Source: an uncultured Muribaculaceae bacterium (GTDB lineage: Bacteria > Bacteroidota > Bacteroidia > Bacteroidales > Muribaculaceae). Taken from it: DNA of 64,000 bases. The stretch spans positions 14,918 through 78,917 of the forward strand of contig CAJTKG010000010.1 of the NCBI GenBank assembly GCA_910576935.1, in the 5' to 3' direction. Under the pieces are notes generated by a model, which did not search any database, had not been told where the DNA came from, and saw only the letters and a list, made by a program, of their open reading frames with translations. The translations under genes and the position numbers were made by a program. Of the stretch, positions 42,931-62,354 are shown piece by piece (positions within the stretch are counted from its first letter, which is position 1; each line of letters starts with the position of its first letter).

Positions 42931-42963
42931 AATCTACGATTTTCAAGGCTTTTATAACATATG

Positions 42964-43669: not shown

Positions 43670-43671
43670 AA

Positions 43672-44094
43672 TCAGTTTGATTTTTTGTATGTAATTGCCA
43701 ATAGTATTCCACTAAATAATAGACTTAAAAGCAGAATCCTATAATCTGTTTTGATATAACGTATTATAAGATCTGAAAAATTTCCGTGAGAGCGATTTTC
43801 TATCGCTGCGTAACATGTCATGAGGACATAAAATATTACAAGCAAAATTGATTCAAAGATCACTACCGTTTTTAAGCCTACTGTTTTTTTTATCAACAGA
43901 TGATTCACCAATGAGTACAATAACAATAGGCCTAAAGACCTAAGTAACGCCATCATCAGTCCGATTGGTTTGGCATAAAGCCATGCACGATAAGCGTAAT
44001 AATAAAATATGTATATGAACCCGACGTATAGAAATAAATATGCGCCTGTTCTTTTAAGAATTTTTATCAGCCGGGTAGTTTTGTCCTGTGGCAT
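43672..44094 (-). CDS. Small 4-TM membrane protein, putative immunity protein for the upstream toxin
   Basis: 140 aa with four hydrophobic helices. It starts 2 nt after the toxin stop. No family was recognised, so the assignment rests on position. Confidence 0.5.
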   Translation of the reverse strand: MPQDKTTRLIKILKRTGAYLFLYVGFIYIFYYYAYRAWLYAKPIGLMMALLRSLGLLLLYSLVNHLLIKKTVGLKTVVIFESILLVIFYVLMTCYAAIENRSHGNFSDLIIRYIKTDYRILLLSLLFSGILLAITYKKSN

Positions 44095-44096
44095 AA

Positions 44097-45832: not shown

Positions 45833-45837
45833 ACTCA

Positions 45838-45845
45838 CAAATGTA
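45838..45845 (-). promoter_or_regulatory. -7 box (TACATTTG) abutting the first island gene
   Basis: caaatgta on the plus strand ends 5 nt from the ATG at 45832, a leaderless-like arrangement. Confidence 0.3.
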
Positions 45846-45921
45846 ATACCATCTTTATTGATCTACAACTAAAATGATGTGTTATACAACATGATTTTAT
45901 TGTATTTCGTGTAAAATGAAC

Positions 45922-45940
45922 CGACTTATTCGTATCTTTG
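45922..45940 (+). repeat. Inverted copy of the 19-nt repeat (cgacttattcgTATCTTTG) = probable promoter of the CDF gene
   Basis: Perfect 19-nt reverse complement of 43112-43130. It contains TAnnTTTG 46 nt upstream of the ATG at 45987. Confidence 0.7.
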
Positions 45941-45986
45941 AGGGATTCTTAACAACAGCTCGATAAAGGGCGGCTCAATCTTGGCA

Positions 45987-48213: not shown

Positions 48214-49137
48214 ATGACAGTAAAATCACTGAAACTATCAAATAAAGCTACCGTTGCCGCCGTCATAGCGACCACACTCGCTCTCGGCGCCTGCAACAAG
48301 GATGAGGTCATAGACGACAGCGGAGAAGCCATGCCGGGAATCGTGCGCGTTGAAGTCATAGACTACTCACCCGCCCCCGGTCAGTTTATAAACATCGTTC
48401 CAAAGTATACCGCCGGTGACGACGTTTCCACTATCAACCGCAAAGCCACTGAAGCTCTGAACAGAGGCGACTACATATCACTCGGCGCCTGGGGCGGAAG
48501 CATAACCCTCAGACTCGACAGATATATCCGCAACATCGCCGGACGTGCCGACTTCGCTGTCCTCGGAAACGCATATTACACCCCTGACGCCTCTGACGGG
48601 CGTCAATGCGGCAGTTCCGAGCCCGGCATCATTCTTGTCATGGAAGACCGCAACGGCAACGGCATCCCTGACGACGGATGGTATGAGATACCCGGCTCTG
48701 AACATACCCGGGCCGGCGATACAGACTACACTGTAACATATAACATCCTCGGGCCGCGCCACATAACATGGACCGACAATCTCGGAGCCTCGGGCACGCT
48801 TTATGACGGCTCTGACTACCACGAGCAACCTTTCGTGCCGCAATGGCTCAACGCAGGCAACGCCATGACATTCACCGGCAGACGTCTGCCCGACAACGGC
48901 TTCTATGACCCTGAGTCCAAACAATACAAGCAATATGTCTATGACGGCTATGCCGACTGCCGCCCCAACAACGACGCCGCCCGCGGCATCGACATCGGCA
49001 GCGCCGTCGACGCCGACGGACACTCGGCCAATCTGTCGCGCATCGATTTTGTCAGAATATATACCGCCGTTCTTCAGGTCAACGGCCCTATGGGCGAATG
49101 CTCGACCGAAGTCGCCGGCATTGAAGCCCTTCATTAA
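48214..49137 (+). CDS. Hypothetical lipoprotein
   Basis: 307 aa with a lipobox (TLALGAC NKDE). The protein is beta-rich, and I did not recognise a family. Confidence 0.55.
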   Translation: MTVKSLKLSNKATVAAVIATTLALGACNKDEVIDDSGEAMPGIVRVEVIDYSPAPGQFINIVPKYTAGDDVSTINRKATEALNRGDYISLGAWGGSITLRLDRYIRNIAGRADFAVLGNAYYTPDASDGRQCGSSEPGIILVMEDRNGNGIPDDGWYEIPGSEHTRAGDTDYTVTYNILGPRHITWTDNLGASGTLYDGSDYHEQPFVPQWLNAGNAMTFTGRRLPDNGFYDPESKQYKQYVYDGYADCRPNNDAARGIDIGSAVDADGHSANLSRIDFVRIYTAVLQVNGPMGECSTEVAGIEALH

Positions 49138-49140
49138 CCG

Positions 49141-50079
49141 ATGGATTTGTCAGCCTTACTTTTAGCGGCATTGCCCGCATTCTTCACTGACGCAGGCGTC
49201 AGCGTCGACGACCTCGGTTATGTCGTTGAAAACGACGACCCCACGCGCGAGACGGTCACAGACTGCCGCACACTGTTGCGCGACGACATCATACGCACCG
49301 ACATCACCGACGAAATAATTGACGCCGGTGCGGTCGCCGTCGAACGCGTGATGCCGGTCGCCGACAACTGTTGGCTCGCATCGTTCAGAATTGAATATGA
49401 CGAAACACCTGCATGGTATTTCATCGTCACATACGGCAATGACGGGTCCGTCGCCGATGCCCTTTATGCCGGTCGATGCGACGACCGTTCCTTTCTGTCG
49501 CCCATAGCTTTCGCCGACAGCGAAGGTAACAGCATCGATCTTTATATCGAATACAACTCCATCATACCCGCTATCGAGACCACTCCCGAAGGACATCCGG
49601 CGATGACGATCTTCAACAAAACCGTCTTCCGTGACCCGGTAACCGACGAAGGCTTCCGGGCCGGCGACGACGAAATCACCGTTGCCATCGACATAGACGG
49701 CACGATGACACTCACAGGCATCCGCCCCGGCTCTGACGAACTCGAAGCCCTGACGGCGCGCTATAGCTCGGCATATGACAGAGCGTCGCTACTATCGTCG
49801 CTGCGCTCTGAATTGCTCCGTTTCACGCCCTACTCCTCGCGCCCGTCGGCAATCCGACTGCGCAGGATTGCCGAAGATAAAGGAAATGACGCCATGACCG
49901 CCCGTTTCTTCCTGCTCGACCCCGACGGTGTGGCCAAAGCGGCGCTCGCCGACAAAACAATCCTTACGGCACTTGCCCGCGCCGACAATGATATTACCGA
50001 CCGGGCGCTGCAAGCCATTACCGATACAACGCTACGCGATACCATAGCCGACGCATTAAAAAACACACCTTTAAATTAA
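49141..50079 (+). CDS. Hypothetical acidic protein
   Basis: 312 aa. It starts 3 nt after the previous stop and shares the composition of its neighbours. No motifs were recognised. Confidence 0.5.
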   Translation: MDLSALLLAALPAFFTDAGVSVDDLGYVVENDDPTRETVTDCRTLLRDDIIRTDITDEIIDAGAVAVERVMPVADNCWLASFRIEYDETPAWYFIVTYGNDGSVADALYAGRCDDRSFLSPIAFADSEGNSIDLYIEYNSIIPAIETTPEGHPAMTIFNKTVFRDPVTDEGFRAGDDEITVAIDIDGTMTLTGIRPGSDELEALTARYSSAYDRASLLSSLRSELLRFTPYSSRPSAIRLRRIAEDKGNDAMTARFFLLDPDGVAKAALADKTILTALARADNDITDRALQAITDTTLRDTIADALKNTPLN

Positions 50080-50097
50080 TTGCAATCCCTGAAAAAC

Positions 50098-51225
50098 ATG
50101 GACCAACCTTTACGCATCCTACTGATGGGCGACTACAGCAACTGCCATCGCACCCTTGCCACGGGGTTGCGCAGTCTCGGCCACGACGTGACTGTCGTTT
50201 CCGACGGCTCTAAATGGCAGAACACAGCCCGCGACATCGACATAGCACGACGGGGAAAATCACAAGCCGCCGGACTCGAACTGATGCTGCGTCTGCGTTA
50301 CGGCATCATGCCGCGCCTGAAAAACTTCGACATAGTCGCCATCCACAACCCCGGTTTCCTCAACCTCAGACCGACACGCACAAAATACTTCTTCGACCGT
50401 CTTAAAGGCGAGAACCGCTCGATATTCCTGACAGCCATGGGCACCGACTCGGCATATCTCGACCTCTGCTCGGCCGCAGACTCACCGCTGCGATATACCG
50501 AGTGGTTTATCGACGGAAATCCCTCGCCTCTCTACCTGAGTAATCCCGACAAATGGCGTGACTGGCACAACAACGAGATCAGGTCGTTTCATGAATATGT
50601 CTACAATAATATCGACGGCGCTGTCTCAATATTGTATGAATACCACCTGGCGATAACCCGCGCTCTTGGCCCTGACAAATGTGCCTTCGGCGGTCTGCCG
50701 ATTGACCTGTCTGGCATCAGGCCGGTCGCTCTCGCTCCCGACCACGAGGTTGTCAGATTATATCTCGGACGCCATCGTGAACGCTGCATCGAGAAAGGCA
50801 CAGACGTGCTCGAAGCCGCCGCCCGCGACGTCATCGCCCGTCACAAAGGCCGCGTAACCCTGTCTATCATCGAAAATCTGCCTTACGATCAATATATCAA
50901 GACGATATGTGGCCATCACATCTCTCTCGACCAGCTTTACAGCTACTCTCCGGCGACAAATGCTCTGCTGGCTATGGCTTACGGCCTCAACGCTGTCAGC
51001 GGTGCCGAGCCTGAGTTCTACAACTTTATCGGCGAGCCGGCCGGTGGCCCCGTCATCAACGCTCCTGTCGAATACGACCGTCTCGTCGAGACCCTCGACG
51101 CCGTGGTCTCCGACCCGCGCGCCATCGCTCCCCGCGGCCTCCGCTCGCGCATGTTTGTCGAGAAGCACCACGATTGTCGCCTCGTTGCCCGACGCTTTCT
51201 TGATTTCTGGACATCAAAACTATGA
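50098..51225 (+). CDS. Putative GT-B-fold glycosyltransferase
   Basis: The N-terminal Rossmann-like RILLMGDYSNCHRTLATGLRSLGHDVTVVS is typical of GT4-like enzymes. The assignment is tentative. The track start is a TTG at 50080. Confidence 0.45.
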   Translation: MDQPLRILLMGDYSNCHRTLATGLRSLGHDVTVVSDGSKWQNTARDIDIARRGKSQAAGLELMLRLRYGIMPRLKNFDIVAIHNPGFLNLRPTRTKYFFDRLKGENRSIFLTAMGTDSAYLDLCSAADSPLRYTEWFIDGNPSPLYLSNPDKWRDWHNNEIRSFHEYVYNNIDGAVSILYEYHLAITRALGPDKCAFGGLPIDLSGIRPVALAPDHEVVRLYLGRHRERCIEKGTDVLEAAARDVIARHKGRVTLSIIENLPYDQYIKTICGHHISLDQLYSYSPATNALLAMAYGLNAVSGAEPEFYNFIGEPAGGPVINAPVEYDRLVETLDAVVSDPRAIAPRGLRSRMFVEKHHDCRLVARRFLDFWTSKL

Positions 51226-52040
51226 CACTCGATCTCGCTCTCGTCACATGGCAGCCCGAAGGCATTGCCCGCGTCGCAACCCAACAGCTGCCGCGTCTCG
51301 ACGGTGTGCGGTATATCGTCTCGTGGCAATGTCACGGCAACGCCCCGATTCCTGACAGTCTCGCCTCCCGCGACGACGTCGAGATATACCGCTGCGAACT
51401 GACAGGTGTGGCCAACAATCGCAACAACGCCGTCGACCATTGCCGGGGCGACATCATCCTCATGGCCGACGACGACATTACATACGACGCTGACGCTCTC
51501 CGCGCTGTCATCGGCATCTTCGAGCGACATAACGACGTAGACCTCGTCACGTTGCGCTACGACAGTTCGCGCCATAAGCCGTATCCTGCCGCCGAGACCG
51601 CTCTCACGCTGCCTTTGCCCGTCGATTATTGGGTGAGCACCGTCGAAATTGCCGTGCGTCGCGACTCTGCTGCCGGGCGCCTGCGTTTCTGTCCCGAGCT
51701 CGGCCCGGGAGCGCTCTATCCGGCCGCCGAAGATGAAGTCTTCTTTCTCGCCGCCATGCGCCGGGGCATCAGATGCCATTATTTCCCTGTCAGCATAGGT
51801 CGCCATCCCGACCTCTCGAGCGGCGCCGCTCCTATAGGCTCAAAAGCATATTACAAGGCTATAGGTATTTTTCTCTCGCTCTGTTACGGCGCGTCTGCGC
51901 CGTTGCGCGCCGTCATCCGCTCATGGCGTCTGCGCCGTCAAGGGCGAGCCCCCTTTTTCCGTTCGCTCATTTACATACTCAGGGGCATAACCGAAGCCTC
52001 CGACATGAAACAACGTAACCGACAATACCTATGGCCATAA
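51222..52040 (+). CDS. Putative GT-A-fold glycosyltransferase (paralogue 1)
   Basis: 272 aa with NNRNNA and a DxD-like ILMADDDITYD motif. A 4-nt overlap joins it to the previous gene. Confidence 0.5.
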   Translation: MTLDLALVTWQPEGIARVATQQLPRLDGVRYIVSWQCHGNAPIPDSLASRDDVEIYRCELTGVANNRNNAVDHCRGDIILMADDDITYDADALRAVIGIFERHNDVDLVTLRYDSSRHKPYPAAETALTLPLPVDYWVSTVEIAVRRDSAAGRLRFCPELGPGALYPAAEDEVFFLAAMRRGIRCHYFPVSIGRHPDLSSGAAPIGSKAYYKAIGIFLSLCYGASAPLRAVIRSWRLRRQGRAPFFRSLIYILRGITEASDMKQRNRQYLWP

Positions 52041-52861
52041 GACCTCTGACTCTCGATCTCGCTATCGTCACCTGGCAGCCCGAAGGCATTGCACGCGTGG
52101 CAGCCCGACAGCTGCCGCGCATACCCGGTGTCCGTTATGTCATCTCATGGCAGTGTCACGGCGGCGCACCCATCCCCGACAGCCTTACAACCCGCGACGA
52201 CGTCGAGATTCACCGCTGCGAGCTGACAGGCATATCGAATAACCGCAATAATGCCATCGGCCACTGCCGTGGCGACATCATCCTCATGGCTGACGACGAC
52301 ATCGACTATGACGATGACGGCCTGCGCCGGGTGCTGTGCGCTTTCCGCGATAACCCGAGACTCGAGATGGCGACATTCAGATTTGACGGCGCGGGAGACA
52401 AACCTTATCCGACGGCAGAGACCGATTTAAGATTTCCGCTGCCCTACGGTTTTTGGGTCAGCTCGGTCGAGATCGCCGTACGGAGTCACAGCAATGCCGG
52501 CCGACTCAGATTCTGCCCCGAACTCGGGCTCGGCGCCCGCTTTCCCGTAGCCGAAGACGAATTTTATATCCTCTCGGCCTTACGACGTGGCGTCATACCA
52601 CGCTTTTTTCCTGTCGTCATCGGGCACCACAACGGCCCGACAAGCGGTTGCCGACCTATATCCTCAAATGCCGCCCTCGAAGCCCTCGGCATCTATGTCG
52701 GCCTGACCTACGGCTACAACGCACCACTGCGCGTCTATACCCGCGCCCGCCTCATAAAACGTCAGCGTCGCGCATCGTTCCTACGGGCTATTTTCGGCAT
52801 CATGTCGGGCATCTTTAAAGCTCGCGCGTTCAGACAAAGAAACAAAGAGTATCTATGGTGA
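52031..52861 (+). CDS. Putative GT-A-fold glycosyltransferase (paralogue 2, tandem duplicate)
   Basis: 276 aa, colinear with 51222-52040. The two share long identical runs (VTWQPEGIARVA, SWQCHG, RGDIILMADDDI, AGRLRFCPELG). Confidence 0.5.
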   Translation: MAIRPLTLDLAIVTWQPEGIARVAARQLPRIPGVRYVISWQCHGGAPIPDSLTTRDDVEIHRCELTGISNNRNNAIGHCRGDIILMADDDIDYDDDGLRRVLCAFRDNPRLEMATFRFDGAGDKPYPTAETDLRFPLPYGFWVSSVEIAVRSHSNAGRLRFCPELGLGARFPVAEDEFYILSALRRGVIPRFFPVVIGHHNGPTSGCRPISSNAALEALGIYVGLTYGYNAPLRVYTRARLIKRQRRASFLRAIFGIMSGIFKARAFRQRNKEYLW

Positions 52862-53766
52862 AGATCAGCCTCATAATACCCGTCTACAACCGCGCCGACG
52901 TAGTCACGGCGACACTCGCCTCTGTCGCCGCCCAGACATCACGCGATTTCGAACTTATTCTCGTCGACAACAATTCAACCGACGACACACTCGCCGTACT
53001 GCATCGTTGGCGCGACAGCATGGCCGACAGCGGGCTGACAGTCAGAATCCTCGAGTGTGCGACGCCGGGGGCATCGGCGGCACGGAATATCGGTCTGGCA
53101 GCGGCTTCAGCTCCTTGGACAATGTTTTTCGACTCTGACGACACGATGCGGCCACGCCATATAGCCCGCGCCATCGAGGCTATCGACGCTCATCCCGACG
53201 CATCTCTGATCGGATGGAACATAATGCTACACGAAGGCTCGAAAGTCTCGATCAAGACATTCATGCCCGACAATCTGGCACGTCGCAACATCTTCGAAGG
53301 CTCAATGGCGCCGCAACGCTACTGTATCGACACCGCGCTCGCACGCCGCGCCGGAGGATGGAACGAGAGCGTCATGCGTTGGAACGACATAGAATATGGA
53401 CAGCGCATCATCGCCCTTGACCCTGTCACCGTCTTCGCCGGCAACGAAATCACTGTCGACGTGATCGCCGGCGCCAGATCGATAACAGGCACGGGCTTTG
53501 CCGCCGACGCCGCCCGGCTTGATCATGCCCTCGACACTATAAAAACAACCCTCGGCGCTCCGGCAGGAGACATCATCGAGCTTAAACGCGCCATCACCGC
53601 CGGATTATGTGCCCGCGAAGACCGCGCCACCGGGCGTGCGATGCTCTCGCGGGCCCTCGCCGCCACATCACGTCGCCGTCTCCGCCTGTTGCTTCACGCA
53701 GCCTTCAGCTACACAGCCATGGGCGGACGAGGTGCCGGACGGCTCTTCTTACCCCTTTACCACTGA
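52855..53766 (+). CDS. Family 2 glycosyltransferase
   Basis: ISLIIPVYNRADVVTATLASVAAQTSRDFELILVDNNSTDDT and FFDSDD (DxD). Confidence 0.85.
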   Translation: MVKISLIIPVYNRADVVTATLASVAAQTSRDFELILVDNNSTDDTLAVLHRWRDSMADSGLTVRILECATPGASAARNIGLAAASAPWTMFFDSDDTMRPRHIARAIEAIDAHPDASLIGWNIMLHEGSKVSIKTFMPDNLARRNIFEGSMAPQRYCIDTALARRAGGWNESVMRWNDIEYGQRIIALDPVTVFAGNEITVDVIAGARSITGTGFAADAARLDHALDTIKTTLGAPAGDIIELKRAITAGLCAREDRATGRAMLSRALAATSRRRLRLLLHAAFSYTAMGGRGAGRLFLPLYH

Positions 53767-53786
53767 TTTTAACCTTGACACTACCA

Positions 53787-54830
53787 ATGACACACTATCA
53801 CGACAAACACTTCAACACTCATGAGAATATGCTCTACCGTCAGGCCGACCGCCTCGCCGACCGACGCAAGGCCGACGACGGCGACAACTCGTGCCACTGC
53901 CGGCGCTGCGGAGCGTTATTGACATCAGGAGCCGCTTTCTGCGAAGACTGCGGTGAATCGGTGTCGTCATCACACGCGTGCTCACACTGTCACGCCGAAA
54001 TACCTCGGGGCATGACTATCTGTCCATCGTGCGGCCACAGCCTAAACGCCGGCAACTGCACATTCTGCGGCGCTCCTGTAGACCCCGGCGACCGCTTTTG
54101 CACCGAGTGCGGCAATCCGCGCGACGGCCTGCGCTGTCCCCGATGCGGCGCTCATAATCAGCGAAGTTTCTGTCGTGTATGCTCGCATCCGCTCAACGAC
54201 ATGGCCTTGAAGATGCTCGAGCGGGTCAAAGACGACCCGCTCGTGGCCGAGGCACACCGCCTTGCTCTCGAGCTGGCCGAACTCGAAGCCACGCTTGCCG
54301 ACGCCGGCCTCACTGACCCCGGCAACGACGCCGGCCGATCATCAACCGATTACGTCAGCAACGTCATCAATCTTTCAGAGGATGAAAAACGTATTCTCGC
54401 CGACTATGAGAGCCTTATGTCGATGGCGGCCGGCATTCCTGTCGACAGCGGTGCAGCCAAAGACGCGGTTGATGCCGGTTTTGCCATAAAAGAACGCCGA
54501 CGCTTCAGCGTCAGCGAAACATCGGTCACCGACCTCATCTCAGCCTACCGCCTCAAGGCACAGGAGATGCAGGCCGCTCTCGACGCCATAGTGCCTGACG
54601 AGGCGATGAACGCCGAAGAGCAGCGCAATTTCTTTACCGCCTGCCATATCGTCGTAATGAAAGAAGTAACGACTCGCAGCCGCGTCAAAGACGGCTGGAT
54701 ATGCAACTGGTGCGGCTGCCATCACACTACTCCGACTGAATGCTGTAGGCCTGAACTCGGCGGCAAGTGGATTTACCGCGAAATCGAAGTCAAGACCCGA
54801 GCCGCAGGCATAGGCAGCGTAAACATCTGA
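53787..54830 (+). CDS. Multi-zinc-ribbon protein (four tandem CxxC..CxxC ribbons + C-terminal Cys cluster)
   Basis: The ATG at 53787 (MTHYHDKHF) is the likely start. The ribbons are CHCRRCG..FCEDCG, CSHCH..CPSCG, CTFCG..FCTECG and CPRCG..FCRVCS. The C-terminal cluster is CNWCGCHH..ECC. The track ORF start at 53607 overlaps the GT2 gene. Confidence 0.7.
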   Translation: MTHYHDKHFNTHENMLYRQADRLADRRKADDGDNSCHCRRCGALLTSGAAFCEDCGESVSSSHACSHCHAEIPRGMTICPSCGHSLNAGNCTFCGAPVDPGDRFCTECGNPRDGLRCPRCGAHNQRSFCRVCSHPLNDMALKMLERVKDDPLVAEAHRLALELAELEATLADAGLTDPGNDAGRSSTDYVSNVINLSEDEKRILADYESLMSMAAGIPVDSGAAKDAVDAGFAIKERRRFSVSETSVTDLISAYRLKAQEMQAALDAIVPDEAMNAEEQRNFFTACHIVVMKEVTTRSRVKDGWICNWCGCHHTTPTECCRPELGGKWIYREIEVKTRAAGIGSVNI

Positions 54831-54845
54831 TATAACTTTTATGCT

Positions 54846-57800
54846 ATGAGCACCAAAACACCCATACCGTCACCTCCGCCGTCAACATCACCGACCGGTA
54901 CAGCCGGCTTCGAAGACCTCGGTTCGGGGACTTATATCGCCACCGGAGGAACGGCGATAGCTACCGGAGGAACGGCCGTGGTCAACGACAATGGCGGTGG
55001 TGCGCCACTCCCTGACGACCGCCCCGGCTACAGGCTCGGGAAACTCGACTTCAAAGTAATAAAGCGCCTGTCGTCGGCCACGGGCGAGGCGTCTGTGTTT
55101 TTAGCCGAAAACGGCGGCAATAAATTCGCCATCAAGCTTTACCGACCGGGGCATCGCCCCGACGACGGAGTCATCTATCGTCTTTGCCGCGCCCGAGGCA
55201 ACGGCCTGACCGTCGACGTCTATGACCATGGCGTATGGCATGACCCCGACGCCCCGTCGGTAGAACGATACTATGAAGTTCAGCGCTACTACCCCGCCGG
55301 CGGTCTCGGGCAAGAGAACATCCGCGGCGACGAGCTGCGATTCCGCGAGATAGCGCTCAATATGGCTTCGGCCATTGATTTCTGTCACAGCCACAGAATA
55401 TTACACCGCGACATCAAACCGGCCAATTTCCTCTATGCCGACGGCTCTCACCGCCGGTTCGTTCTCGCTGACTTCGGCATCGCACGCGGCATCGCCGCCG
55501 ACGGCCGTTGCAAGATCGACAGCGGCCGCACACCTGTCTATGCCGCACCCGAATGCTATATCAGCATCGACCGCCGTCTCATCGACGTCGACCGCAAGAG
55601 CGACTACTATGCCATGGGCATGTCGCTCCTCGCCCTCTGGATAGGCGAAGACAGCCTGCGCGGCAACGAGCGCGAACTCATCATGAAGAAACAGAACGAG
55701 GCTCTGCCCTACCCCGACGACATGTCGGCCCACAGTCTCTCGCTCATCAAGGCGCTCACACGTCGCGACATATCGCAGCGCGCCGATTTTGCCACCATAA
55801 AACGCTGGGCCGCAGGCGAGACTGTCTTCGACATGTCAGACTATCACAAAAACGCCACAGGATTCAGAATCATTTTCAACTCGTCGCGCAACATGGTGGC
55901 AAACAGTCCCGCCGAGCTGGCCGCCATGATGTGGGCCGAACCTGCTTTGGCCATAAAATATCTATATAGCGGCACACTGAAGAAATGGTTCGCCGACCTT
56001 GGACGCCCCGAGACGGCTGTCGAGATCGACAATATCGCCGAAGAACTATATCCACACAACCATAAAGCCGGCCTTTTCGCGGCTTGCCTGCTGCTCGACC
56101 CCGACATGCCGTTCACAGGCATCAAAGGCAACAGCATCGTAACCCCCGTCGACATCGCCGCCGAACTGTGGGCCAACGCCTCGACCTACAAAGAACTGCT
56201 GACCGGCGCCGACGCGCTGCTCTATGTCTACATGCGCTCGTGTGGTCTCGACAATCTCGCCGACAAATATCCGCGTCTTATAGGCCGCGACGCCGACTGC
56301 TATCTCTTCGACCTTATATATACCCTCGACCCTTCGCTGCCTTATCCCGTAAAAGACAAAAAAGGCAAATGGCACAATGCCCGCAGCGTCAACGATATTA
56401 TCGCCGTCGCCCACGACCCCGGACTCGACCCCGTAACGCTCAAGCTGATCAGAGGAGACGATTTTGTCAACTGGCTCTCGGCACGCGACAAAGCCCTCGC
56501 CGGCAAAGTCGCCGAAACCGCTCGACGCACACACGACGGCTGGGCAACGCTCTATGCCCTTGCGCCGGCGGCGTCTTATAATTTCGTCACCGACTCCAAC
56601 GCCATCGACTATCTCTTCACACCCGCGCAGATCGCCGAAGAGATAAGCCGCGAGATGGCCGGTCTTTCGACCCTCGGTCTTAAACTCACCGAGCAGCTGG
56701 GCCACAGCGCCTTCGACGGCTCTCGTCTCCACCGCTATCTCGAGTCGAAAGGTAAATTTGACCGGCAGATAAGTTGGGTTCGCTACTGCAAAGATCTCAC
56801 ATCGACCGACAACGCCGGCAAGATCGGTCCTTACAACGACGACATCGCCACATATAAAATCATACGCGGCTGGGGAGGTTCGTGCCCCTACTATCCCTCG
56901 CAGGGACACGGCCGCAAACTCTTGAGTCTAGCCGACGTCGACAGATGTCCGTCACAGATATTACACTTCGAGAAACAGCGGCTGCCCGACTGGCTGACAG
57001 GATTCTTCCAGGAAAACCCATCGGCCGACTACAAGCGGCGGTCATATGCCGACCTTACGGGCGACTATTATGACTACCTCGTCAGACGACTGCCCGACTG
57101 CAACTACATCGCACGGTCGGCAAAGCTCGCCGCCACACTCAAAACAGCCATCGACGACGAGAAAAAGGCATGGAAGAATATAAGAACGATACAGTGGCTT
57201 ACCGTCCTGCTTTGCTTCGTCCCCATGCTAGCCACATTTATCATACTGTTCGTCACCGGTTTCAGCAACATCAGCCGGGCGCTGCGTCCGCTCATCGAGG
57301 CCTCGGGCCACTATGTCGGCATCGCCCTCGGCATCATCGGCGGCCTGGCAAGTCTGGCTTCCTCGCGCCCCAATCTTATTGCCGCAGGCATCGTCGGACT
57401 CATCATCTACGGCATCACGGTCTTCGTATTCAAATTTCTCGTTTTCCTCGCTCCGTGGCTGTTGGCAGCCCTGCTTGCGGTCGCAATCTGGTATTTCGGC
57501 CGCGACATCTTCACCTCCACCAAAAAGAAAGCAATGGCCGGCGTGTCTGCGTCATCGTTGAACGACACCGTGCGCCTCAGGCTCATGGGCGAGGCTTTCG
57601 GCACGACTTCAAAAATTTTCAAGCACAACAGCCCCGGCGATCTGCTCGACATGCTCCGGAACAGTACCGGCGAGGCGCGCTCCAAAATCAGGAAGATGCT
57701 GCGCTGCGGCGCAGTGTTGCTTGTGCTGTCGGCCGCCACAGTGGCCTTCAACATCTTCGTCACGCCATCACTCCTCGACAGCCGCGACGCCGCAGACGAA

Positions 57801-58136
57801 ATAAAGTCAGACTATATCGCCGAAATCTCCACATCGGTCCTCGACGGAGTCTGGACCGGCACGTTCGACGGTGTCGGCGCCACGATGACCGTCGCGACTT
57901 CCGACGGAGTCACACGCGCAAAAATCGTCATCTCATACACGACGCCGTTGCACCAGAGTGTAACAATTAAACCGTCAGGCAGCAACGGAGTCTCCATGAC
58001 GGTCATCTCATCGACGGGAGCCGTGAGCGGCCGGTATGACGCCACAATAACCTCAGACAACGGCTATATGACAGGCAAATATATTAACCCGACGACAGGG
58101 CGATCGCTCTTCTTCCAATTCTCAAAACAACCGTGA
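54846..58136 (+). CDS. Membrane-anchored Hanks-type Ser/Thr protein kinase with long helical repeat region, ~5 TM helices and small C-terminal beta domain
   Basis: FAIKLY (VAIK Lys), HRILHRDIKPANFL, LADFGIAR and TPVYAAPE. TM helices are encoded at about 57170-57760. The C-terminal roughly 110 aa are beta-rich. Confidence 0.85.
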   Translation: MSTKTPIPSPPPSTSPTGTAGFEDLGSGTYIATGGTAIATGGTAVVNDNGGGAPLPDDRPGYRLGKLDFKVIKRLSSATGEASVFLAENGGNKFAIKLYRPGHRPDDGVIYRLCRARGNGLTVDVYDHGVWHDPDAPSVERYYEVQRYYPAGGLGQENIRGDELRFREIALNMASAIDFCHSHRILHRDIKPANFLYADGSHRRFVLADFGIARGIAADGRCKIDSGRTPVYAAPECYISIDRRLIDVDRKSDYYAMGMSLLALWIGEDSLRGNERELIMKKQNEALPYPDDMSAHSLSLIKALTRRDISQRADFATIKRWAAGETVFDMSDYHKNATGFRIIFNSSRNMVANSPAELAAMMWAEPALAIKYLYSGTLKKWFADLGRPETAVEIDNIAEELYPHNHKAGLFAACLLLDPDMPFTGIKGNSIVTPVDIAAELWANASTYKELLTGADALLYVYMRSCGLDNLADKYPRLIGRDADCYLFDLIYTLDPSLPYPVKDKKGKWHNARSVNDIIAVAHDPGLDPVTLKLIRGDDFVNWLSARDKALAGKVAETARRTHDGWATLYALAPAASYNFVTDSNAIDYLFTPAQIAEEISREMAGLSTLGLKLTEQLGHSAFDGSRLHRYLESKGKFDRQISWVRYCKDLTSTDNAGKIGPYNDDIATYKIIRGWGGSCPYYPSQGHGRKLLSLADVDRCPSQILHFEKQRLPDWLTGFFQENPSADYKRRSYADLTGDYYDYLVRRLPDCNYIARSAKLAATLKTAIDDEKKAWKNIRTIQWLTVLLCFVPMLATFIILFVTGFSNISRALRPLIEASGHYVGIALGIIGGLASLASSRPNLIAAGIVGLIIYGITVFVFKFLVFLAPWLLAALLAVAIWYFGRDIFTSTKKKAMAGVSASSLNDTVRLRLMGEAFGTTSKIFKHNSPGDLLDMLRNSTGEARSKIRKMLRCGAVLLVLSAATVAFNIFVTPSLLDSRDAADEIKSDYIAEISTSVLDGVWTGTFDGVGATMTVATSDGVTRAKIVISYTTPLHQSVTIKPSGSNGVSMTVISSTGAVSGRYDATITSDNGYMTGKYINPTTGRSLFFQFSKQP

Positions 58137-61100
58137 ACACCGACAACAACTGCACCCGCTGCGGGGGCGCAAACCGCCCCGAAGCACGTTACTGCAAACA
58201 CTGTGGCAACGCCCTTGCCGCAACTTCAAAACAGTCAATAATCGACAGCATCAAAGGTCAGGCCAACGTCAGGGAACGACTCTCGGACATCTACGACAAG
58301 GCTGTGGCGATAAAAAACCGCGCCGACGCGACCAAAGTGAAGATGCGCCTCGAAATGAATTTCTTCATCACCGGAGCACCCGGCACAGGCAAGACCATGC
58401 TCGCCAACACAATAGCACGTCTGCTGACCGACGCCGGCGTCACATCGCAGCGGCCTCCCGTCACCGTCGACGCTGCCGACTACGAGCAATGGGCAAAAGA
58501 GATAGACAAGAACACCGACGCAATAAAAGACGGCATACTCATCATCGAGAATATCGGCAAACTCACAGGTCGCCAATATAGTGCCGGCGTCTCTCCACTC
58601 GACCCGCTGTTCTCGCGTCTGTCGCGCTGGTATGGCAATCCCGACCGTCCCGTCGTAATCCTGACAGGTCTGACCGACATGGCCGATTTCATGCGAAGCA
58701 ACACCAATGTAGGACGTTACTTCCCGTTTGTTTTCCACCTCGAACCATATACCATCGCCGAGATGGCCGACATCTGCGAGGCCATACTCGTCAACCGCTT
58801 CGGTCTCACCCTCGAGCCGGAGGCCCGCGAGAAACTCGAGCGCGTGTTCATCGACTCGCGCCGCGACCCGTCATCGACTGCCGACAACGGGCATCTCGCT
58901 GCACGCAAGGCCTCGGAAATATCTGTCGAACACACGGCCTATCCGGGCGACGACACCACCGTCGGCCCCGACGAGATTCCCGGCAAAGAGTTCATTGCCA
59001 AAACATTCGAGCAGGTCATCGCCGAGTTTGACAACTATGTCGGCATTGATGAGATCAAAGAGACCGTGCGCACCATAGCGGCCCGTGTCGACCGGCGACG
59101 ACACGCGATCGAAGCCGGCACATCCGACCCCAAGACTCCTCTCATCGACTCACACTACCAATTTCTCGGCAATCCCGGCACAGGCAAGACCACCGTCGCA
59201 CGCATCTTTGCCGACGCGCTCAAATCGCTCGGCGCACTCCCCGTAGGGCAGCTCGTCGAAGTCTCGCGCGATGACCTCGTCAGCAAATATGTCGGTGAGA
59301 CGCCTCAGCTCGTCAAAGCCGCTGTCGAAAGGGCCATAGGCGGTGTGCTCTTCATCGACGAAGCCTATCGGCTCTGCCGCGACAAAAGCGACACTTTCGG
59401 CCTCGAGGCCATCGAGAGCCTGCTTACATACACCGAGAACCGCCGTGGCGAATTCGTGCTCATCATGGCGGGGTATGCCAAAGAGATGGGTGAGCTGTCG
59501 GCCGTAAATGACGGCATAGCCTCGCGCATAAACAATGTGGTCTATTTCCGTGACTACAAACCCGAAGAACTAACCGAAATATTCCGACGCATGCTCGCCT
59601 CTACACCCGAGCGTTTCACCGTGCCCCCCGAGACCGATGCCCGACTGATCAACGTCTTCAACCGCATGTATCAGACACGCACCTCAAAATTCGGCAACGC
59701 CCGCGACGTGCGTAACGTGCTGACCACGGCCATCTCGCGCCACGCCGCCCGCATCGCCGCCCAAGGCCCGGCCGACGTCGACGACAACGTCCTGACTCTC
59801 AACGATATCGACCCCGGGGCGACATCGACCCCGACGACAGCCGACGAGATACTCGCGCCTCTCGACGGCCTCATTGGCATGGACAGTGTCCGCAGCCGTC
59901 TGCGCGCCCTCGCCAACAAGATGATCAAAGACCGCCGCCGCGCCGCCGCGCGCCCCGGCTCCACCGAGATACCGACAGTTCACATCGCCCTAACCGGCAA
60001 TCCCGGCACAGGAAAGACCGAGGTCGCCAAACGACTCGGCCGCGTATTCAAGGCAATGGGAATACTGCCGTCCGACAAAGTCGTCTTCCGCGAGCGCAAA
60101 ACCCTCCTCGACAGCTACTCCAACTCGGCCGCCGTCAACATGGACAAAGCCGTCGACGAAGCCATCGGCGGAGTCCTCTTCATCGACGAGGCATACAACC
60201 TCATGCCACTCGACCCCGGGGGCCGCGACAACATAGGCGCTCAGGCCGTCGAAGCCCTTATGACCCGTATGGTCAACGATGCCGGTAAATTCATCACCGT
60301 CATCGCCGGCTACAAAAATCTCATCGAAGAGTTTGTCAACAACGCCAACCCGGGGCTCAAAAGCCGCTTCACCACGTTCATCGATATTCCCGATTACAAC
60401 GCTTCCGAACTGTTCGACATCTACATGCAGCAGGTCGAACGCCGGGGCTACACTCTCACCCCCGAAGCCGTCGGGCGTCTGAAGCTTAAAATCGACGAAA
60501 TGATAACGTCGAAAGACGAGAGATTTGCCAATGCCCGCGACATCATAGCCCTGTTCAACGAGACATGCCTCCGGCAGGACTCACGTGTCGACGTCGACGC
60601 CCCCGTCGACCAACTCTATCTCATCACCGAAGACGATATCCCCTACACCCCGCCGCGCAAAATAGACCTCGCCGACTGCCTCGGCCGTCTCGACGATCTT
60701 ATCGGTCTCGACAGCGTCAAAAAATCGCTGCGCGACCTCGCCGACAGCATCACAGTCGAGCAACAGCGCGCAGCCATCGAAGGACGTCGGCCCGAATATG
60801 TCTACGACCACTACCTTTTCGTCGGCAATCCGGGGACAGGCAAAACAACCGTCGCCCGCATCATGGGCGAGATCATGCACTCGCTCGGTCTGCTACCGAG
60901 CAACAAAGTCATCGAAACCGTCGCCAAAGACTATATCGCGGGCTATGTGGGACAGACGGCACGTCAGACAGAGATCACCGTCAACCGCGCTCTCGGCGGT
61001 ATCCTCTTCATCGACGAGGCATACGGCCTCAACGACGGGCCGGGCGGATTCGGCAAAGACGTAATGCCGACACTTCTCACCAAACTTCTCGACTACAAAG

Positions 61101-61477
61101 GCCGTATGATATGCGTCGCCGCGGGCTACCCGCGCGAAATGCGCCAATGGGTCGACACCAACAGCGGCCTGCGCTCGCGATTTACCAAAGAGATCGTCTT
61201 CGAGGACTACGACGCCGACCAACTCGCTGAAATCTTCCTCAGCCTCGCCGCCAAAGCCAAATTCACACTGACGCCCGAGGCCGAAGAAGCCATGCTCGCA
61301 TACTTCCGTACCCTCGTCTACAACAAGACACGCGACTTTGCCAACGCCCGCGAGGCCCGCAACTACTTCGACGCCGTCAAACTGCGTCAGGGCGCCCGCC
61401 TGCGCCGCATTATGGAAGGACCAGCATTCGAACGCGCCGCCTACTATATCCTCGAACGCGAAGACATGCTCGTCTGA
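58133..61477 (+). CDS. Zinc-ribbon + four tandem CbbX/SpoVK/EccA-like AAA+ ATPase modules
   Basis: The GTG start overlaps the kinase stop (GTGA). The N-terminal ribbon is CTRCG..YCKHCG. Walker A motifs are GAPGTGKT, GNPGTGKT, GNPGTGKT and GNPGTGKT. Walker B is LFIDEAY in modules 2-4 but LIIENIG in module 1. AGY...NPGL(K/R)SRF blocks are present. Confidence 0.85.
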   Translation: MNTDNNCTRCGGANRPEARYCKHCGNALAATSKQSIIDSIKGQANVRERLSDIYDKAVAIKNRADATKVKMRLEMNFFITGAPGTGKTMLANTIARLLTDAGVTSQRPPVTVDAADYEQWAKEIDKNTDAIKDGILIIENIGKLTGRQYSAGVSPLDPLFSRLSRWYGNPDRPVVILTGLTDMADFMRSNTNVGRYFPFVFHLEPYTIAEMADICEAILVNRFGLTLEPEAREKLERVFIDSRRDPSSTADNGHLAARKASEISVEHTAYPGDDTTVGPDEIPGKEFIAKTFEQVIAEFDNYVGIDEIKETVRTIAARVDRRRHAIEAGTSDPKTPLIDSHYQFLGNPGTGKTTVARIFADALKSLGALPVGQLVEVSRDDLVSKYVGETPQLVKAAVERAIGGVLFIDEAYRLCRDKSDTFGLEAIESLLTYTENRRGEFVLIMAGYAKEMGELSAVNDGIASRINNVVYFRDYKPEELTEIFRRMLASTPERFTVPPETDARLINVFNRMYQTRTSKFGNARDVRNVLTTAISRHAARIAAQGPADVDDNVLTLNDIDPGATSTPTTADEILAPLDGLIGMDSVRSRLRALANKMIKDRRRAAARPGSTEIPTVHIALTGNPGTGKTEVAKRLGRVFKAMGILPSDKVVFRERKTLLDSYSNSAAVNMDKAVDEAIGGVLFIDEAYNLMPLDPGGRDNIGAQAVEALMTRMVNDAGKFITVIAGYKNLIEEFVNNANPGLKSRFTTFIDIPDYNASELFDIYMQQVERRGYTLTPEAVGRLKLKIDEMITSKDERFANARDIIALFNETCLRQDSRVDVDAPVDQLYLITEDDIPYTPPRKIDLADCLGRLDDLIGLDSVKKSLRDLADSITVEQQRAAIEGRRPEYVYDHYLFVGNPGTGKTTVARIMGEIMHSLGLLPSNKVIETVAKDYIAGYVGQTARQTEITVNRALGGILFIDEAYGLNDGPGGFGKDVMPTLLTKLLDYKGRMICVAAGYPREMRQWVDTNSGLRSRFTKEIVFEDYDADQLAEIFLSLAAKAKFTLTPEAEEAMLAYFRTLVYNKTRDFANAREARNYFDAVKLRQGARLRRIMEGPAFERAAYYILEREDMLV

Positions 61478-62354
61478 TAATAAAAAAGGGTCTCACAGCA
61501 GATCTCTTATCGAGCGCAAAGTTTAGTCTTCACAAAAACCAATGCGTTAATTATCCCATCAGACTAATTTGACCAATAAATCCAATTAGAACAAATTCAT
61601 CATTCCAAAATTGCTAATCCACGGCGCATGGAGCGACGCTCCATGGCCCGAGCGAATCCACGACGCTATGGAGGAGGGCGGCGCATAACTGGAAAATTTA
61701 TATTACATCCCATAACCATACTGACAATCAGCGACATTATTATAATATATAATATAAATAGTGTACTTTTGGGGAAGATGGAGATAACCGCAGGCAAAGG
61801 AGTTCTAAATATTTATACTCCGTTAATGATTTTTTATTGCGTTGATTTGCTTATCTTTCTAAAGATAGTTTCCCCTAATTTATTATATGGCTATGTTTGC
61901 TTGTGAACAAGCAATAAAGGATGAGCAATGCTTTTGAGTGGCGATTAAACGCTTGCGCGCCTAAAGTCCCTAAAGTCAAAGTCGAAACGCTATTTCATCT
62001 GTGATGATTTGTAATCATCCCCTTGTTAGATTCGCCATTTTTCACTAATTTTGCACTCGGATTTGACGATGCAGTATGCTGAAAATGCCTGCGGAAAGTC
62101 AATTTAGTAATGTATAAATCAACAACAGTTACTTCTGATTCTGAAACCATTATAGCGGAGAATAAGGGCATTACATCATTTCGGGATGAAATGATGCCTT
62201 ACCGTATAAATTTGATATTTCCAACTGATTTTTGGAACACGCTTCAGTAAGTTAAGGCTTGCTGTGAGATAGTTGTGCACCATGCCTATATGGGTATCGG
62301 TGCTGTTTTTCGTGTGCCTATATCGAATATTTCAAATTAAATCAATAATTATAA

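Follow-up and report, generated by a model that had tools for sequence, protein, structure and literature searches.

What do a zinc-ribbon protein, a membrane Hanks-type Ser/Thr kinase and a tandem AAA+ ATPase do when their genes lie side by side in the genome of an uncultured Muribaculaceae bacterium, and do they form a system of their own? The window analysed here, a 64-kb stretch of DNA, contains these genes as three intact, tightly packed ORFs at 53787-61477 (Table 1), which an earlier note had put forward as an undescribed three-gene system. The ORF coordinates agree with the arrangement described there, three consecutive same-strand genes with a 15-nt gap between the first two and a 4-nt GTGA overlap between the last two, in which the GTG start of gene 3 overlaps the stop of gene 2. 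The start of gene 1 was placed at ATG 53787 because the protein then has the length of its homologues and because the longest ORF, which starts at 53607 and was rejected, would overlap the upstream glycosyltransferase (GT) gene.

Table 1. Positions in the window of the three genes, their domains and the upstream block.
Feature	Position	Strand	Basis
Upstream lineage-specific block	48214..53766	+	same strand, tightly packed
Gene 1: zinc-ribbon protein, 347 aa	53787..54830	+	
Gene 1 ribbon region, residues 36-135	53892..54191	+	Pfam and homologue alignment
Gene 1 C-terminal CCHC knuckle, residues 304-328	54696..54770	+	conserved columns and AF2
Gene 2: membrane Hanks-type Ser/Thr kinase, 1096 aa	54846..58136	+	
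Kinase N-terminal disordered region, Thr-centred short repeats	54846..55007	+	pLDDT <50
Kinase catalytic domain, residues about 60-325	55023..55820	+	Pfam Pkinase 5.3e-22
Kinase cytoplasmic helical mid-domain, residues about 330-750	55833..57095	+	AF2 pLDDT >90
Kinase TM region, five helices as read	57192..57767	+	hydropathy and AF2 helices
Kinase C-terminal 8-strand beta domain, residues 1001-1094	57846..58127	+	AF2
Gene 3: zinc ribbon and tandem AAA+ ATPase, 1114 aa	58133..61477	+	
ATPase N-terminal zinc ribbon C7/C10/C21/C24	58151..58207	+	in every family member examined
AAA+ module 1, degenerate	58250..59017	+	motif inspection
AAA+ module 2, canonical, YVG pore loop	59018..59827	+	motifs and profile scores
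AAA+ module 3, canonical catalytic motifs, degenerate pore loop YSN	59828..60652	+	
AAA+ module 4, canonical, YVG pore loop	60653..61474	+	

The product of gene 1 consists of four zinc ribbons, a helical acidic middle, a disordered linker, a helical pair and a C-terminal CCHC beta-hairpin module. The four back-to-back CxxC ribbons (C38/41/52/55, C65/68/79/82, C91/94/105/108 and C117/120/129/132), the acidic helical middle and the terminal Cys/His cluster had been recognized in the earlier note and are confirmed; the ribbons match Pfam DZR (4.6e-24). Of the four, the last two (C91-C132) make up the invariant core, and homologues differ in how many of the first two they have. At the C-terminus, which has the motif GWxCNxCGCHHxxPxEC..GGKW, W304, C306, N307, H313, P316, C319, G325, G326 and W328 do not vary among 31 homologues; with C309 included, these columns are invariant or nearly so in the family alignments, and the knuckle that they form sits in a beta-hairpin with pLDDT of about 95 (AF2). 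This CCHC module is new. The family is small, with 255 representatives among 1.84 billion proteins, all of at most 371 aa, and the module is nearly always C-terminal across it. A Foldseek search of the gene 1 structure against the PDB gave no match below E 0.03; the fold matches nothing known, and any role is a guess.

In gene 2 the kinase motifs FAIK, HRDIKPAN, DFG and APE are all present, conservation of the catalytic residues (VAIK Lys, HRD, Asn, DFG Asp/Gly, APE) across 120 homologues is 90% or higher, and the AF2 model (pLDDT 84) matches full kinase folds in Foldseek, with a TM-score of up to 0.81 against solved kinases; the Hanks core is intact, as the earlier note had it. Its N-terminal Thr repeats (GTAG, GTYIA, GGTAIA and GGTAVV in the window) are retained in the window's lineage, in loci L012 and L170. 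At least three copies of one xTx tripeptide occur in the N-terminus of 54 of the 120 homologues, as against 0/120 for a same-length control region; by this simple criterion, such repeats are found in under half of the kinases. The repeats are candidate sites for autophosphorylation and for FHA docking, and their phosphorylation is a prediction from the sequence. The mid-domain had been described as a long repeat region. It is a confidently modelled helical domain, in which BLAST detected no self-repeat over residues 330-750, but an internal duplication is visible solely at the profile level, where its two halves align with 95% probability (hhalign, E 3e-8). With no Pfam match and no PDB-sequence match, this family-specific domain resembles nothing known, and its role too is a guess. 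Hydropathy and AF2 helices are read here as five TM helices (783-806, 822-840, 843-863, 865-886 and 952-974), in line with the five or so first described, and the small beta-rich tail has eight strands in AF2; predictions for most family members give 4-6 TM helices, and the tail is poorly conserved among them. Because the number of helices is odd and the N-terminus cytoplasmic, the beta domain is predicted to be periplasmic, where it would be a candidate sensor.

Gene 3 opens with a zinc ribbon of the family motif CxxC..NR..A.YCKWCG. The ribbon and four P-loop modules were found as first described; module 1, however, is not canonical. Its Walker A is intact, but its Walker B (LIIEN) is without the catalytic Glu, TGL replaces AGY, sensor-2 is missing and it scores only 50 bits against SpoVK, a degeneracy that is family-wide. 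Modules 2-4 carry GNPGTGKT, (V/I)LFIDEAY, AGY, N.G..SR and NAR. The Walker B DE, AGY and N..R are kept in all canonical modules, and Y/F-V-G pore loops lie in the first and last canonical ones. For each of these canonical modules the best three profiles are SpoVK, CbbX and EccA (214, 186 and 178 bits, respectively, for module 2), and profile similarity places them in the CbbX/SpoVK/EccA clade, in agreement with the earlier assignment. No TPR domain was found on the ATPase. Chains of the family contain 3, 4 or 5 modules, and no one simple ring model fits these counts.

Whether the three genes belong together was examined in a census seeded with the kinase (one genome per species; loci with enough flank) and in a search seeded with the ATPase. 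Gene 1 was next to the kinase at 62 of the 63 kinase-seeded loci with room, and so was the tandem ATPase (62/63); the ATPase-seeded search returned 80 metagenome loci with identical gene order, with the kinase-less L150 as one exception. The trio is co-localized in other genomes with both seeds, and is indeed a conserved unit. However, the ancestral, nearly universal form has not three but five genes, encoding the zinc-ribbon protein, the kinase, the tandem ATPase, an FHA reader and a PP2C phosphatase. The zinc-ribbon-FHA gene is found at 60 of the 64 kinase-seeded loci, with two further weak matches, and the PP2C gene at 61 of the 64; a check of four seed proteins showed intact FHA (GR, S..H, NG) and PP2C motifs, with some of the FHA motifs unmatched in some of the four. 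The earlier note had suggested that genes 1 and 3 might dock through their shared ribbon type; in the full cassette, N-terminal ribbons are on three proteins, not two. The cassette is spread across Bacteroidota. Within Bacteroides, the scan turned up just three named species (B. cellulosilyticus, B. stercorirosoris and B. timonensis), a single bin with the label B. fragilis, and MAGs without a species name; B. cellulosilyticus DSM 14838 (L025) carries all five genes. Its accessory genes, Sel1 (17 loci), DUF1963/TYPP (11), unk271 (21), membrane proteins (11-15) and SUKH, differ between lineages and are protein-interaction adaptors or membrane proteins; TYPP has been proposed to be chaperone-like (PMC4275035). 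PADLOC matched no system and no paper matches the cassette, in keeping with the initial view that it is no named defence, secretion or signalling system. The five-gene cassette is undescribed, and the trio is its core.

The addition of FHA and PP2C genes makes kinase gating of the ATPase more plausible. The Thr-phosphorylation pathway of type VI secretion (T6SS) comprises the kinase PpkA, the PP2C phosphatase PppA, the Fha scaffold and the AAA+ protein ClpV. Like it, the full cassette in relatives would pair a membrane-bound Hanks kinase that reaches into the periplasm with a PP2C that resets it and an FHA protein that reads phosphothreonine and switches on a machine containing an AAA+ ATPase. 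In contrast to that pathway, T6SS genes are not near the cassette loci, the AAA+ protein is a tandem of 3-5 modules of the SpoVK/CbbX/EccA clade and not Clp/Hsp100, the FHA protein carries a double zinc ribbon at its N-terminus, and the window itself is without FHA and PP2C. The Bacillus subtilis AAA+ protein SpoVK promotes the activity of the glycosyltransferase MurG (PMC11513918); it shares with the cassette ATPase a GY sensor-1, an Asn upstream of the Arg finger, a sensor-2 Arg and a small N-terminal recruiting domain, and its dedicated client is a glycosyltransferase, just as the window ATPase sits in a GT gene block. However, SpoVK, which is confined to sporulating Bacillota, consists of one module only, and no single module of the window ATPase reaches the SpoVK equivalog cut-off (214 against 423 bits). 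The portion of PMC11513918 that was searched makes no mention of kinase control of SpoVK. EccA (type VII/ESX) and CbbX (red-type Rubisco activase) are hexameric, narrow-client remodellers of the same clade, but EccA combines TPR repeats with one AAA+ module and its gene lies in ESX loci, the CbbX gene accompanies those for Rubisco, and the zinc-ribbon N-terminus, tandem modules and signalling-protein partners set the cassette ATPase apart from both. Sulfolobus ArnA (zinc-finger-FHA)/ArnB, with kinases and a phosphatase, has a zinc-ribbon/finger and FHA architecture as in the cassette, and the actinobacterial FhaA/FhaB-PstP-PknA/B operon likewise joins kinase, FHA and phosphatase. Both control an envelope or surface-structure process, but their outputs (archaellum; peptidoglycan synthases) are unrelated and they have neither an AAA+ remodeller nor a gene 1-like protein. 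The best reading, which we hold to be somewhat better than an even bet, is a Thr-phosphorylation switch that would sense the envelope and, with a logic resembling that of the T6SS pathway, gate a dedicated SpoVK-clade remodeller.

Among the cassette loci, only the window's lineage is without FHA and PP2C, neither of which is encoded within the 64-kb window, and with upstream glycosyltransferases. Both missing genes are present in the closest outgroup, L168, whose ATPase is 63% identical. The window trio is thus a derived version from which FHA and PP2C were lost in this gut lineage; either another part of the genome encodes them or the switch operates in another way here. That the loss left behind nothing more than a functionless, decaying remainder of the cassette is hardly credible and already disfavoured, as the ORFs are intact, their catalytic motifs are conserved, the identical three-gene form is kept in at least four related assemblies and omega against L012 is 0.18, 0.105 and 0.055 for the three ORFs, at about 18% nucleotide divergence and dS of about 0.75. 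The trio is under purifying selection and, judged by these values, is functional. Upstream lie genes for a lipoprotein (307 aa, lipobox LALGAC), an unknown protein of 312 aa, a GT4-like protein and three GT2 proteins, with omega of 0.05-0.23. The trio might accordingly be a dedicated regulator and chaperone of these glycosyltransferases and nothing more, the kinase sensing envelope glycan status and the AAA+ protein activating or assembling GT enzymes as SpoVK does MurG. The nine genes form a tightly packed same-strand block with a 20-nt gap before gene 1, the block is collinear in the window and at least three related species (L012, L170 and L011), synteny with L012 breaks off precisely at the stop of the ATPase gene, and the clade's dedicated chaperones have narrow clients that include MurG and mycolic-acid enzymes (PMC11513918). 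However, more than 60 other species have the cassette without any GT genes and L168 has unrelated genes upstream; the adjacency therefore arose recently and may be coincidental, which makes this reading unlikely, if quite conceivable. The link to the upstream glycan genes, raised in the earlier note, exists in these four loci and is missing from all other species, L168 included. Terminator or promoter evidence for or against co-transcription was not found.

An anti-phage, abortive-infection or other conflict system, in which the kinase would detect infection or envelope attack and unleash the ATPase as effector, had also been considered. SUKH is a family known as toxin immunity proteins, and its presence among lineage-variable accessory genes, the patchy distribution within Bacteroides and the resemblance of the kinase domain to the defence kinases MAD6 (MADS), PD-T4-6 and MkoA (Mokosh) would fit such a role. 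The resemblance, however, covers residues about 165-320 and does not extend beyond the kinase domain, the partner proteins and any defence-island context are absent, and PADLOC matched only the generic kinase domain and P-loop, with no system-specific protein and no match to gene 1. The 143 neighbour proteins of 29 loci are mostly housekeeping, with few sporadic generic PADLOC matches; no copies were found in IMG/VR viral contigs, INPHARED phages or PLSDB plasmids; a nuclease, toxin or pore effector is absent; and synteny is stable and chromosomal, with low omega. Context gives the defence idea no support, and we consider it improbable. A role in regulating or chaperoning a secretion apparatus, EccA-like (type VII) or modelled on PpkA/PppA/Fha, would suit both the AAA+ clade and the combination of kinase, FHA and PP2C, which is the logic of the T6SS Thr-phosphorylation pathway (PMC3953482), but EccB-E/FtsK-type, WXG100 and T6SS genes are absent from the window and from recurrent neighbours and the ATPase has no TPR domain, so that this reading is very improbable.

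We favour, with a probability of roughly 0.55, the reading that the trio forms the conserved centre of a chromosomal Thr-phosphorylation module that occurs across Bacteroidota and gates a SpoVK-clade remodeller, with glycan enzymes as a possible client in this lineage. The sequence analyses show the gene architecture, the integrity of the motifs, strict co-occurrence, purifying selection and the clade placement; the signal, the phosphosites, the client and the direction of control are what we infer. In such a module, the inner-membrane kinase would use its TM bundle and small periplasmic beta domain to sense a cue from the envelope or periplasm and would autophosphorylate the Thr-centred repeats of its disordered N-terminus; the zinc-ribbon-FHA protein would read these phosphothreonines, and the PP2C phosphatase would reset the switch. 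The output would be the tandem remodeller, with one regulatory degenerate module and 2-4 hydrolysing modules, which may have the zinc-ribbon/CCHC protein as its partner, either adaptor or client, joined in many lineages by the protein-interaction adaptors Sel1, TYPP/DUF1963 and SUKH; together they would act on a small range of protein clients close to the membrane. As the link to glycosyltransferases is confined to one shallow lineage, it is not the ancestral function. In the window's lineage, the core became the 3' end of a lipoprotein and glycosyltransferase block, the direct target of the kinase is probably the ATPase or gene 1, and the neighbouring enzymes of glycan synthesis may serve as client, by analogy with MurG for SpoVK.

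The zinc-ribbon protein (gene 1), the membrane Hanks-type Ser/Thr kinase (gene 2) and the zinc-ribbon AAA+ ATPase (gene 3) encoded in the window belong to a five-gene cassette, the other members of which are a zinc-ribbon protein with an FHA domain and a PP2C phosphatase. The earlier note had proposed a three-gene system on the basis of three ORFs joined by a 15-nt gap and a GTGA overlap. That layout was confirmed in the ORFs of the window, but the unit itself comprises five genes, and the version present in the window is reduced and derived. The start chosen for gene 1 is backed by the lengths of its homologues and by public gene calls; the longest mechanical ORF is 60 codons longer, begins at an ATG and overlaps the end of a GT2 gene.

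Features of the window discussed in the text (window coordinates)
Feature	Coordinates	Strand	Product	Remark
Calcineurin-like phosphoesterase gene	35044-37833	-	929 aa	
T9SS-sorted protein gene	37838-40438	-	866 aa	T9SS C-terminal sorting domain
Low-GC islet	42000-46000			GC 0.38-0.43 (surroundings ~0.51-0.58)
Islet ORF	44097-44801	-	234 aa	no Pfam match; overlaps next ORF
Islet ORF	44798-45838	-	346 aa	no Pfam match
Glycosyltransferase (GT) block	48214-53766	+		directly upstream of gene 1
Lipoprotein gene	48214-49137	+		lipobox LALGAC; no Pfam match
Second block gene	49141-50079	+		unknown protein
GT2 gene	51222-52040	+		
Middle GT2 gene	52031-52861	+		
ORF extension of gene 1	53607-53786			longest mechanical ORF
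Gene 1	53787-54830		347 aa	
Gene 2 (kinase)	54846-58136		1096 aa	15-nt gap from gene 1
Gene 3 (ATPase)	58133-61477		1114 aa	GTG start inside GTGA overlap with gene 2 stop
Apparently non-coding region	61478-62354			~880 bp, AT-rich, immediately 3' of the ATPase stop

The composition of the cassette was established in a scan that took a 5-sequence alignment of the mid-domain specific to this kinase as its seed and one genome per species as its target, and that yielded 77 loci. Partner genes were sought in these loci with HMMs built from our own seed sequences, and counts were limited to loci with enough flanking sequence. Gene 1 and the ATPase each lay beside the kinase in 62 of the 63 loci with room, the FHA protein in 60 of 64 (two more hits were weak) and the PP2C phosphatase in 61 of 64. 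Metagenome contigs were scanned independently with the ribbon and first module of the ATPase as query; this returned 80 loci with the same cassette, so that the co-localisation of the three genes in other genomes was borne out from both seeds. Homologues of gene 1, 32-40% identical, share the gene order of the window: they are accompanied by a kinase and an ATPase of ~1100 aa each and then by the FHA protein and the phosphatase. Among the metagenome loci, minor variants begin with the kinase, ahead of gene 1 and the ATPase, or have the FHA and PP2C genes in front. The kinase-seeded loci are mostly from Bacteroidales, including Barnesiella, Prevotella, Muribaculaceae, Proteiniphilum, Paludibacteraceae and, within Bacteroides, B. 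cellulosilyticus DSM 14838, B. stercorirosoris DSM 26884 and B. timonensis; MAGs of Prolixibacteraceae, Melioribacteraceae and Ignavibacteriae are also among them. The phosphatase keeps its metal-binding motifs in each of the four seed proteins checked, and the FHA domain its pThr-binding motifs in most. In L150 (cassette at 1388-5221), no kinase lies in the 6.8 kb upstream or the 5.5 kb downstream; immediately before gene 1, at the place taken by the kinase in the related loci L154, L161 and L167, are genes for a Sel1 protein of 760 aa and a DUF1963 protein. The genome of B. timonensis, which has a full cassette (L029), also encodes at a second locus (L062) a solitary 899-aa kinase paralogue with no partner genes nearby.

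The trio occurs without FHA and PP2C genes in the window and the rest of its lineage (L001, L011, L012, L013, L088 and L170). Neither gene was found in the 64 kb of the window, where tblastn with the FHA, PP2C and accessory proteins of relatives matched zinc ribbons only. The apparently non-coding region that follows the ATPase, where relatives carry the two genes, holds no detectable remnant of either. L168, the nearest outgroup (kinase 48%, ATPase 63% identical), has all five genes and unrelated genes upstream; therefore, it is in the window's lineage that FHA and PP2C were lost and the trio came to adjoin the GT block, both of them derived traits. Within this lineage, the window and L012 share ~82% DNA identity and are collinear over 48287-61480, synteny ending exactly at the ATPase stop. 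The nine genes of the GT block and the trio are all under purifying selection. Measured against L012, omega is 0.18 in gene 1, 0.105 in the kinase gene, 0.055 in the ATPase gene and 0.05-0.23 across the GT block (dS ~0.75-1.2). The lipoprotein gene that opens the nine-gene block and the unknown gene that follows it are both conserved in L012 (omega ~0.1). Within the block, evolution is fastest in the middle GT2 gene, with 67% amino acid identity to L012 and omega 0.23, while its neighbours have 81-94%; it and the GT2 gene before it are adjacent paralogues with a DNA cross-match of 70-73%. Cation-efflux and Band_7 genes precede the GT block, and just upstream of these lies the low-GC islet, which may be a recent acquisition. 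The T9SS-sorted protein and the phosphoesterase beside it are usual surface-protein content of Bacteroidota, unconnected with the trio, and the window itself is ordinary Bacteroidales chromosome (nuo, TonB receptor, GH97, carB, dnaK).

In the gene 3 protein, a zinc ribbon is followed by four AAA+ modules, as had been noticed earlier; only modules 2-4 are canonical. Module 1 is degenerate, with LIIEN as its Walker B motif, TGL in place of the GY signature and no sensor-2. Every ATPase of the family is built in this way: a ribbon at the N-terminus, next a degenerate first module without the catalytic Glu, and then two, three or four canonical modules, giving lengths of ~850, 1110 or 1400 aa. The number of modules (3, 4 or 5) is a lineage trait; the deepest-branching loci (L059, L073, L083 and L055, from Prolixibacteraceae, Melioribacteraceae and Ignavibacteriae) have five-module ATPases of ~1400 aa. 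Because family members have two, three or four active modules, we do not claim a simple ring model in which two chains with three active modules each form a hexamer. Among the ATPases with three canonical modules, the Walker B DE is kept in 49 of 49 and the N..R finger in at least 48 of 49. Counts of AGY across the family range from 38 to 49 of 49 with the position of the module, and sensor-2 is lost from the middle canonical module in 40 of 49, whereas the window keeps it. A Y/F-V-G pore loop is usual in the first and last canonical modules of this form and lost in the middle one. This pattern fits an enzyme that threads or remodels its substrate.

The three best NCBIfam profiles for each canonical module are SpoVK, CbbX and EccA (147-214 bits, E 1e-43 to 1e-63), and in the whole-protein scan the next AAA+ families follow at E 1e-18 or weaker. 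Three signatures mark the SpoVK/CbbX/EccA clade (PMC11513918): a GY sensor-1, a sensor-2 Arg and, upstream of the Arg finger, an Asn. Modules 2, 3 and 4 of the window ATPase have AGY, the Asn (NDGIASR, NPGLKSR and NSGLRSR) and the sensor-2 Arg (GNAR, ANAR and ANAR). The placement in this clade put forward in the earlier note therefore holds for these modules and is weak for module 1, which lacks the GY signature and scores only 50 bits, to SpoVK. However, no single module reaches the equivalog cut-offs: the best has 214 bits against 423 for SpoVK proper (TIGR02881; the whole-protein score of 616 bits is a sum over four modules), at most 186 against 459 for CbbX (TIGR02880) and at most 178 against 467 for EccA (TIGR03922). 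In addition, SpoVK proper is a single-module protein found in sporulating Bacillota only, whereas the cassette hosts are Bacteroidota; EccA starts with a TPR N-domain and the window ATPase with a zinc ribbon; and neither Rubisco nor ESX genes were found in the window or among the neighbours. By its scores and the signatures in modules 2-4, the ATPase is therefore a member of the higher-order clade, yet not SpoVK, CbbX or EccA.

The kinase has the features of the Hanks type, i.e., the VAIK Lys (here FAIK), the catalytic loop HRDIKPAN, DFG, APE and a bilobal fold. The intact core reported from first inspection was corroborated, as the catalytic residues of these motifs are at least 90% conserved among 120 homologues and Foldseek aligned the model with solved kinases at a TM-score of up to 0.81; the Gly-rich loop is degenerate. 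In the AF2 model (pLDDT 84), a disordered N-terminus is followed by the kinase domain, a helical region (330-750), five TM helices and an eight-strand beta domain (1001-1094), which should be periplasmic. What had been described as a long repeat region is in fact a confidently modelled helical domain, with an internal duplication visible by profile comparison alone. This mid-domain matched nothing in a PDB sequence-profile search or a relaxed Pfam scan; Foldseek with the kinase model returned kinase domains only and is therefore uninformative on the mid-domain and the beta tail. The N-terminus contains short Thr-centred tandem repeats (SGTAVPP, GGTAIA and DKTL are examples from the family), with one xTx tripeptide occurring three times or more in 54 of the 120 kinases and in none of 120 control regions of the same length. 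The window kinase has GTAG, GTYIA, GGTAIA and GGTAVV, and the repeats are retained in L012 and L170 with a different copy number. Plausibly, they are candidate sites of autophosphorylation and FHA docking.

Gene 1 encodes four CxxC..CxxC ribbons, which identify it as a member of the Double zinc ribbon family (Pfam DZR, PF12773; E 4.6e-24, 84.8 bits against a cut-off of 27.3), an acidic, helical middle and a C-terminal module, GWxCNxCGCHHxxPxEC..GGKW, whose Cys/His and Trp/Gly positions are invariant in 31 homologues. Its AF2 model (pLDDT 77) had no Foldseek neighbour in the PDB below E 0.03. An exhaustive profile search of 1.84 billion proteins found 255 representatives of the C-terminal module, almost always at the C-terminus and in proteins of at most 371 aa, lengths that exclude fusion to another large domain. 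DZR is also present in the FHA proteins of relatives. Zinc ribbons stand at the N-terminus of three cassette proteins, gene 1, the ATPase and the FHA protein, which may point to a shared docking mode.

Other genes accompany the cassette in sets that vary by lineage. Recurrent same-strand accessories encode an unknown 271-aa protein (21 loci), Sel1-repeat proteins (17), a membrane protein of 530 aa whose C-terminus bears a ribbon (15), two related membrane proteins that have periplasmic N-domains (11 loci each), DUF1963 (11) and SUKH (5). We considered DUF1963 as an immunity protein and set this aside, as the literature describes it as a TYPP domain, a proposed protein-interaction, chaperone-like module (PMC4275035). 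One of the two related membrane proteins, ~312 aa long, with a signal peptide, a periplasmic N-domain and a TM bundle, is encoded between kinase and ATPase in Muribaculaceae and relatives whose ATPase is of the short three-module type (L041, L048, L052, L053, L056, L080 and L082), and a related one of ~413 aa (hhalign 97.6%) is encoded upstream of gene 1. By hhalign, the accessory membrane proteins are unrelated to the C-terminal or middle regions of the kinase; only families c2 and c3 are kin to each other. Regulators upstream of cassette loci are pairs of a LuxR-type response regulator and a TPR histidine kinase, or are of AraC type. HMMs of 13 accessory families found none in the window.

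The best-supported reading is a Thr-phosphorylation switch with a dedicated AAA+ remodeller as its output. The membrane kinase, the FHA protein as reader and the PP2C phosphatase as eraser would form the switch, and the remodeller would act at the inner membrane, together with the gene 1 protein and adaptors that differ by lineage. This logic resembles the PpkA/PppA/Fha pathway of type VI secretion, and a role as secretion regulator is a rival on that account; kinase, FHA and PP2C are co-encoded in about 60 of 64 related species, though not in the window, and T6SS structural genes were found neither among the window genes nor among the recurrent neighbours. The conflict or abortive-infection module suggested in the earlier note is disfavoured by context. 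The 143 neighbour proteins of 29 diverse loci are mostly housekeeping (HTS, GARS, PFOR, IMPDH, GidA, aconitase and others), with generic PADLOC matches in only a few; PADLOC-DB 2.0 gave no match for gene 1 and no system-specific match, only kinase-domain matches for the kinase and AAA+/P-loop matches for the ATPase; and no cassette copies were found in IMG/VR viral contigs, INPHARED phages or PLSDB plasmids. That the trio is a decaying remnant, after the loss of two partners, is likewise disfavoured, as omega speaks against it; the truncated three-gene form is functional.

Members of the SpoVK/CbbX/EccA clade are dedicated chaperones with narrow clients; SpoVK promotes the MurG glycosyltransferase and EccA1 acts on mycolic-acid enzymes (PMC11513918). 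In the window's lineage, reader and eraser are gone from the locus and the core now ends a lipoprotein and glycosyltransferase block, so the client there may be the enzymes of that block. Given the SpoVK-MurG precedent, this idea is attractive, but its basis is adjacency in one shallow lineage only. A rival reading is a chaperone dedicated purely to the GT enzymes. The link to the upstream glycan genes raised in the earlier note is likewise confined to this lineage. In its full form, the switch-and-remodeller reading would make the cassette the first Hanks-kinase/FHA/PP2C phospho-switch over a SpoVK-clade chaperone, serving envelope homeostasis across Bacteroidota with a unique tandem remodeller (one degenerate and two to four active modules) and a new CCHC zinc protein, and rewired in a gut lineage without FHA and PP2C to activate surface-glycan glycosyltransferases. 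We regard this full form as tentative, with roughly three chances in ten of being correct.

The cassette is made from parts of known kinds and follows a known kind of switch logic; what is new is the combination, together with the tandem architecture and two of the domains. Full-text literature searches gave no account of it, nor is it treated in the eLife 2020 paper on conflict systems, and in public databases the kinases are named only 'protein kinase' and the window proteins are unnamed. The claim that the system is undescribed thus withstood every test proposed with it: the genes are co-localised, no characterised system matches and the clade placement holds.

Bacteroidales are dominant in the human and animal gut, and to our knowledge their Ser/Thr-kinase signalling is almost unstudied. 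The cassette is present in the cultured, tractable species B. cellulosilyticus, B. stercorirosoris and B. timonensis and extends to Ignavibacteria-type MAGs. It unites a eukaryote-like phospho-switch with the SpoVK/CbbX/EccA chaperones, whose known clients include envelope-building enzymes, a pairing absent from the literature searched. Should the model fail, the census would still yield a clean, uncharacterised five-gene family and define two new domains, the CCHC module of gene 1 and the helical mid-domain of the kinase. If it is true, the cassette would offer a new AAA+ architecture for structural study and a testable path from envelope sensing to the post-translational control of envelope or glycan enzymes in gut commensals.
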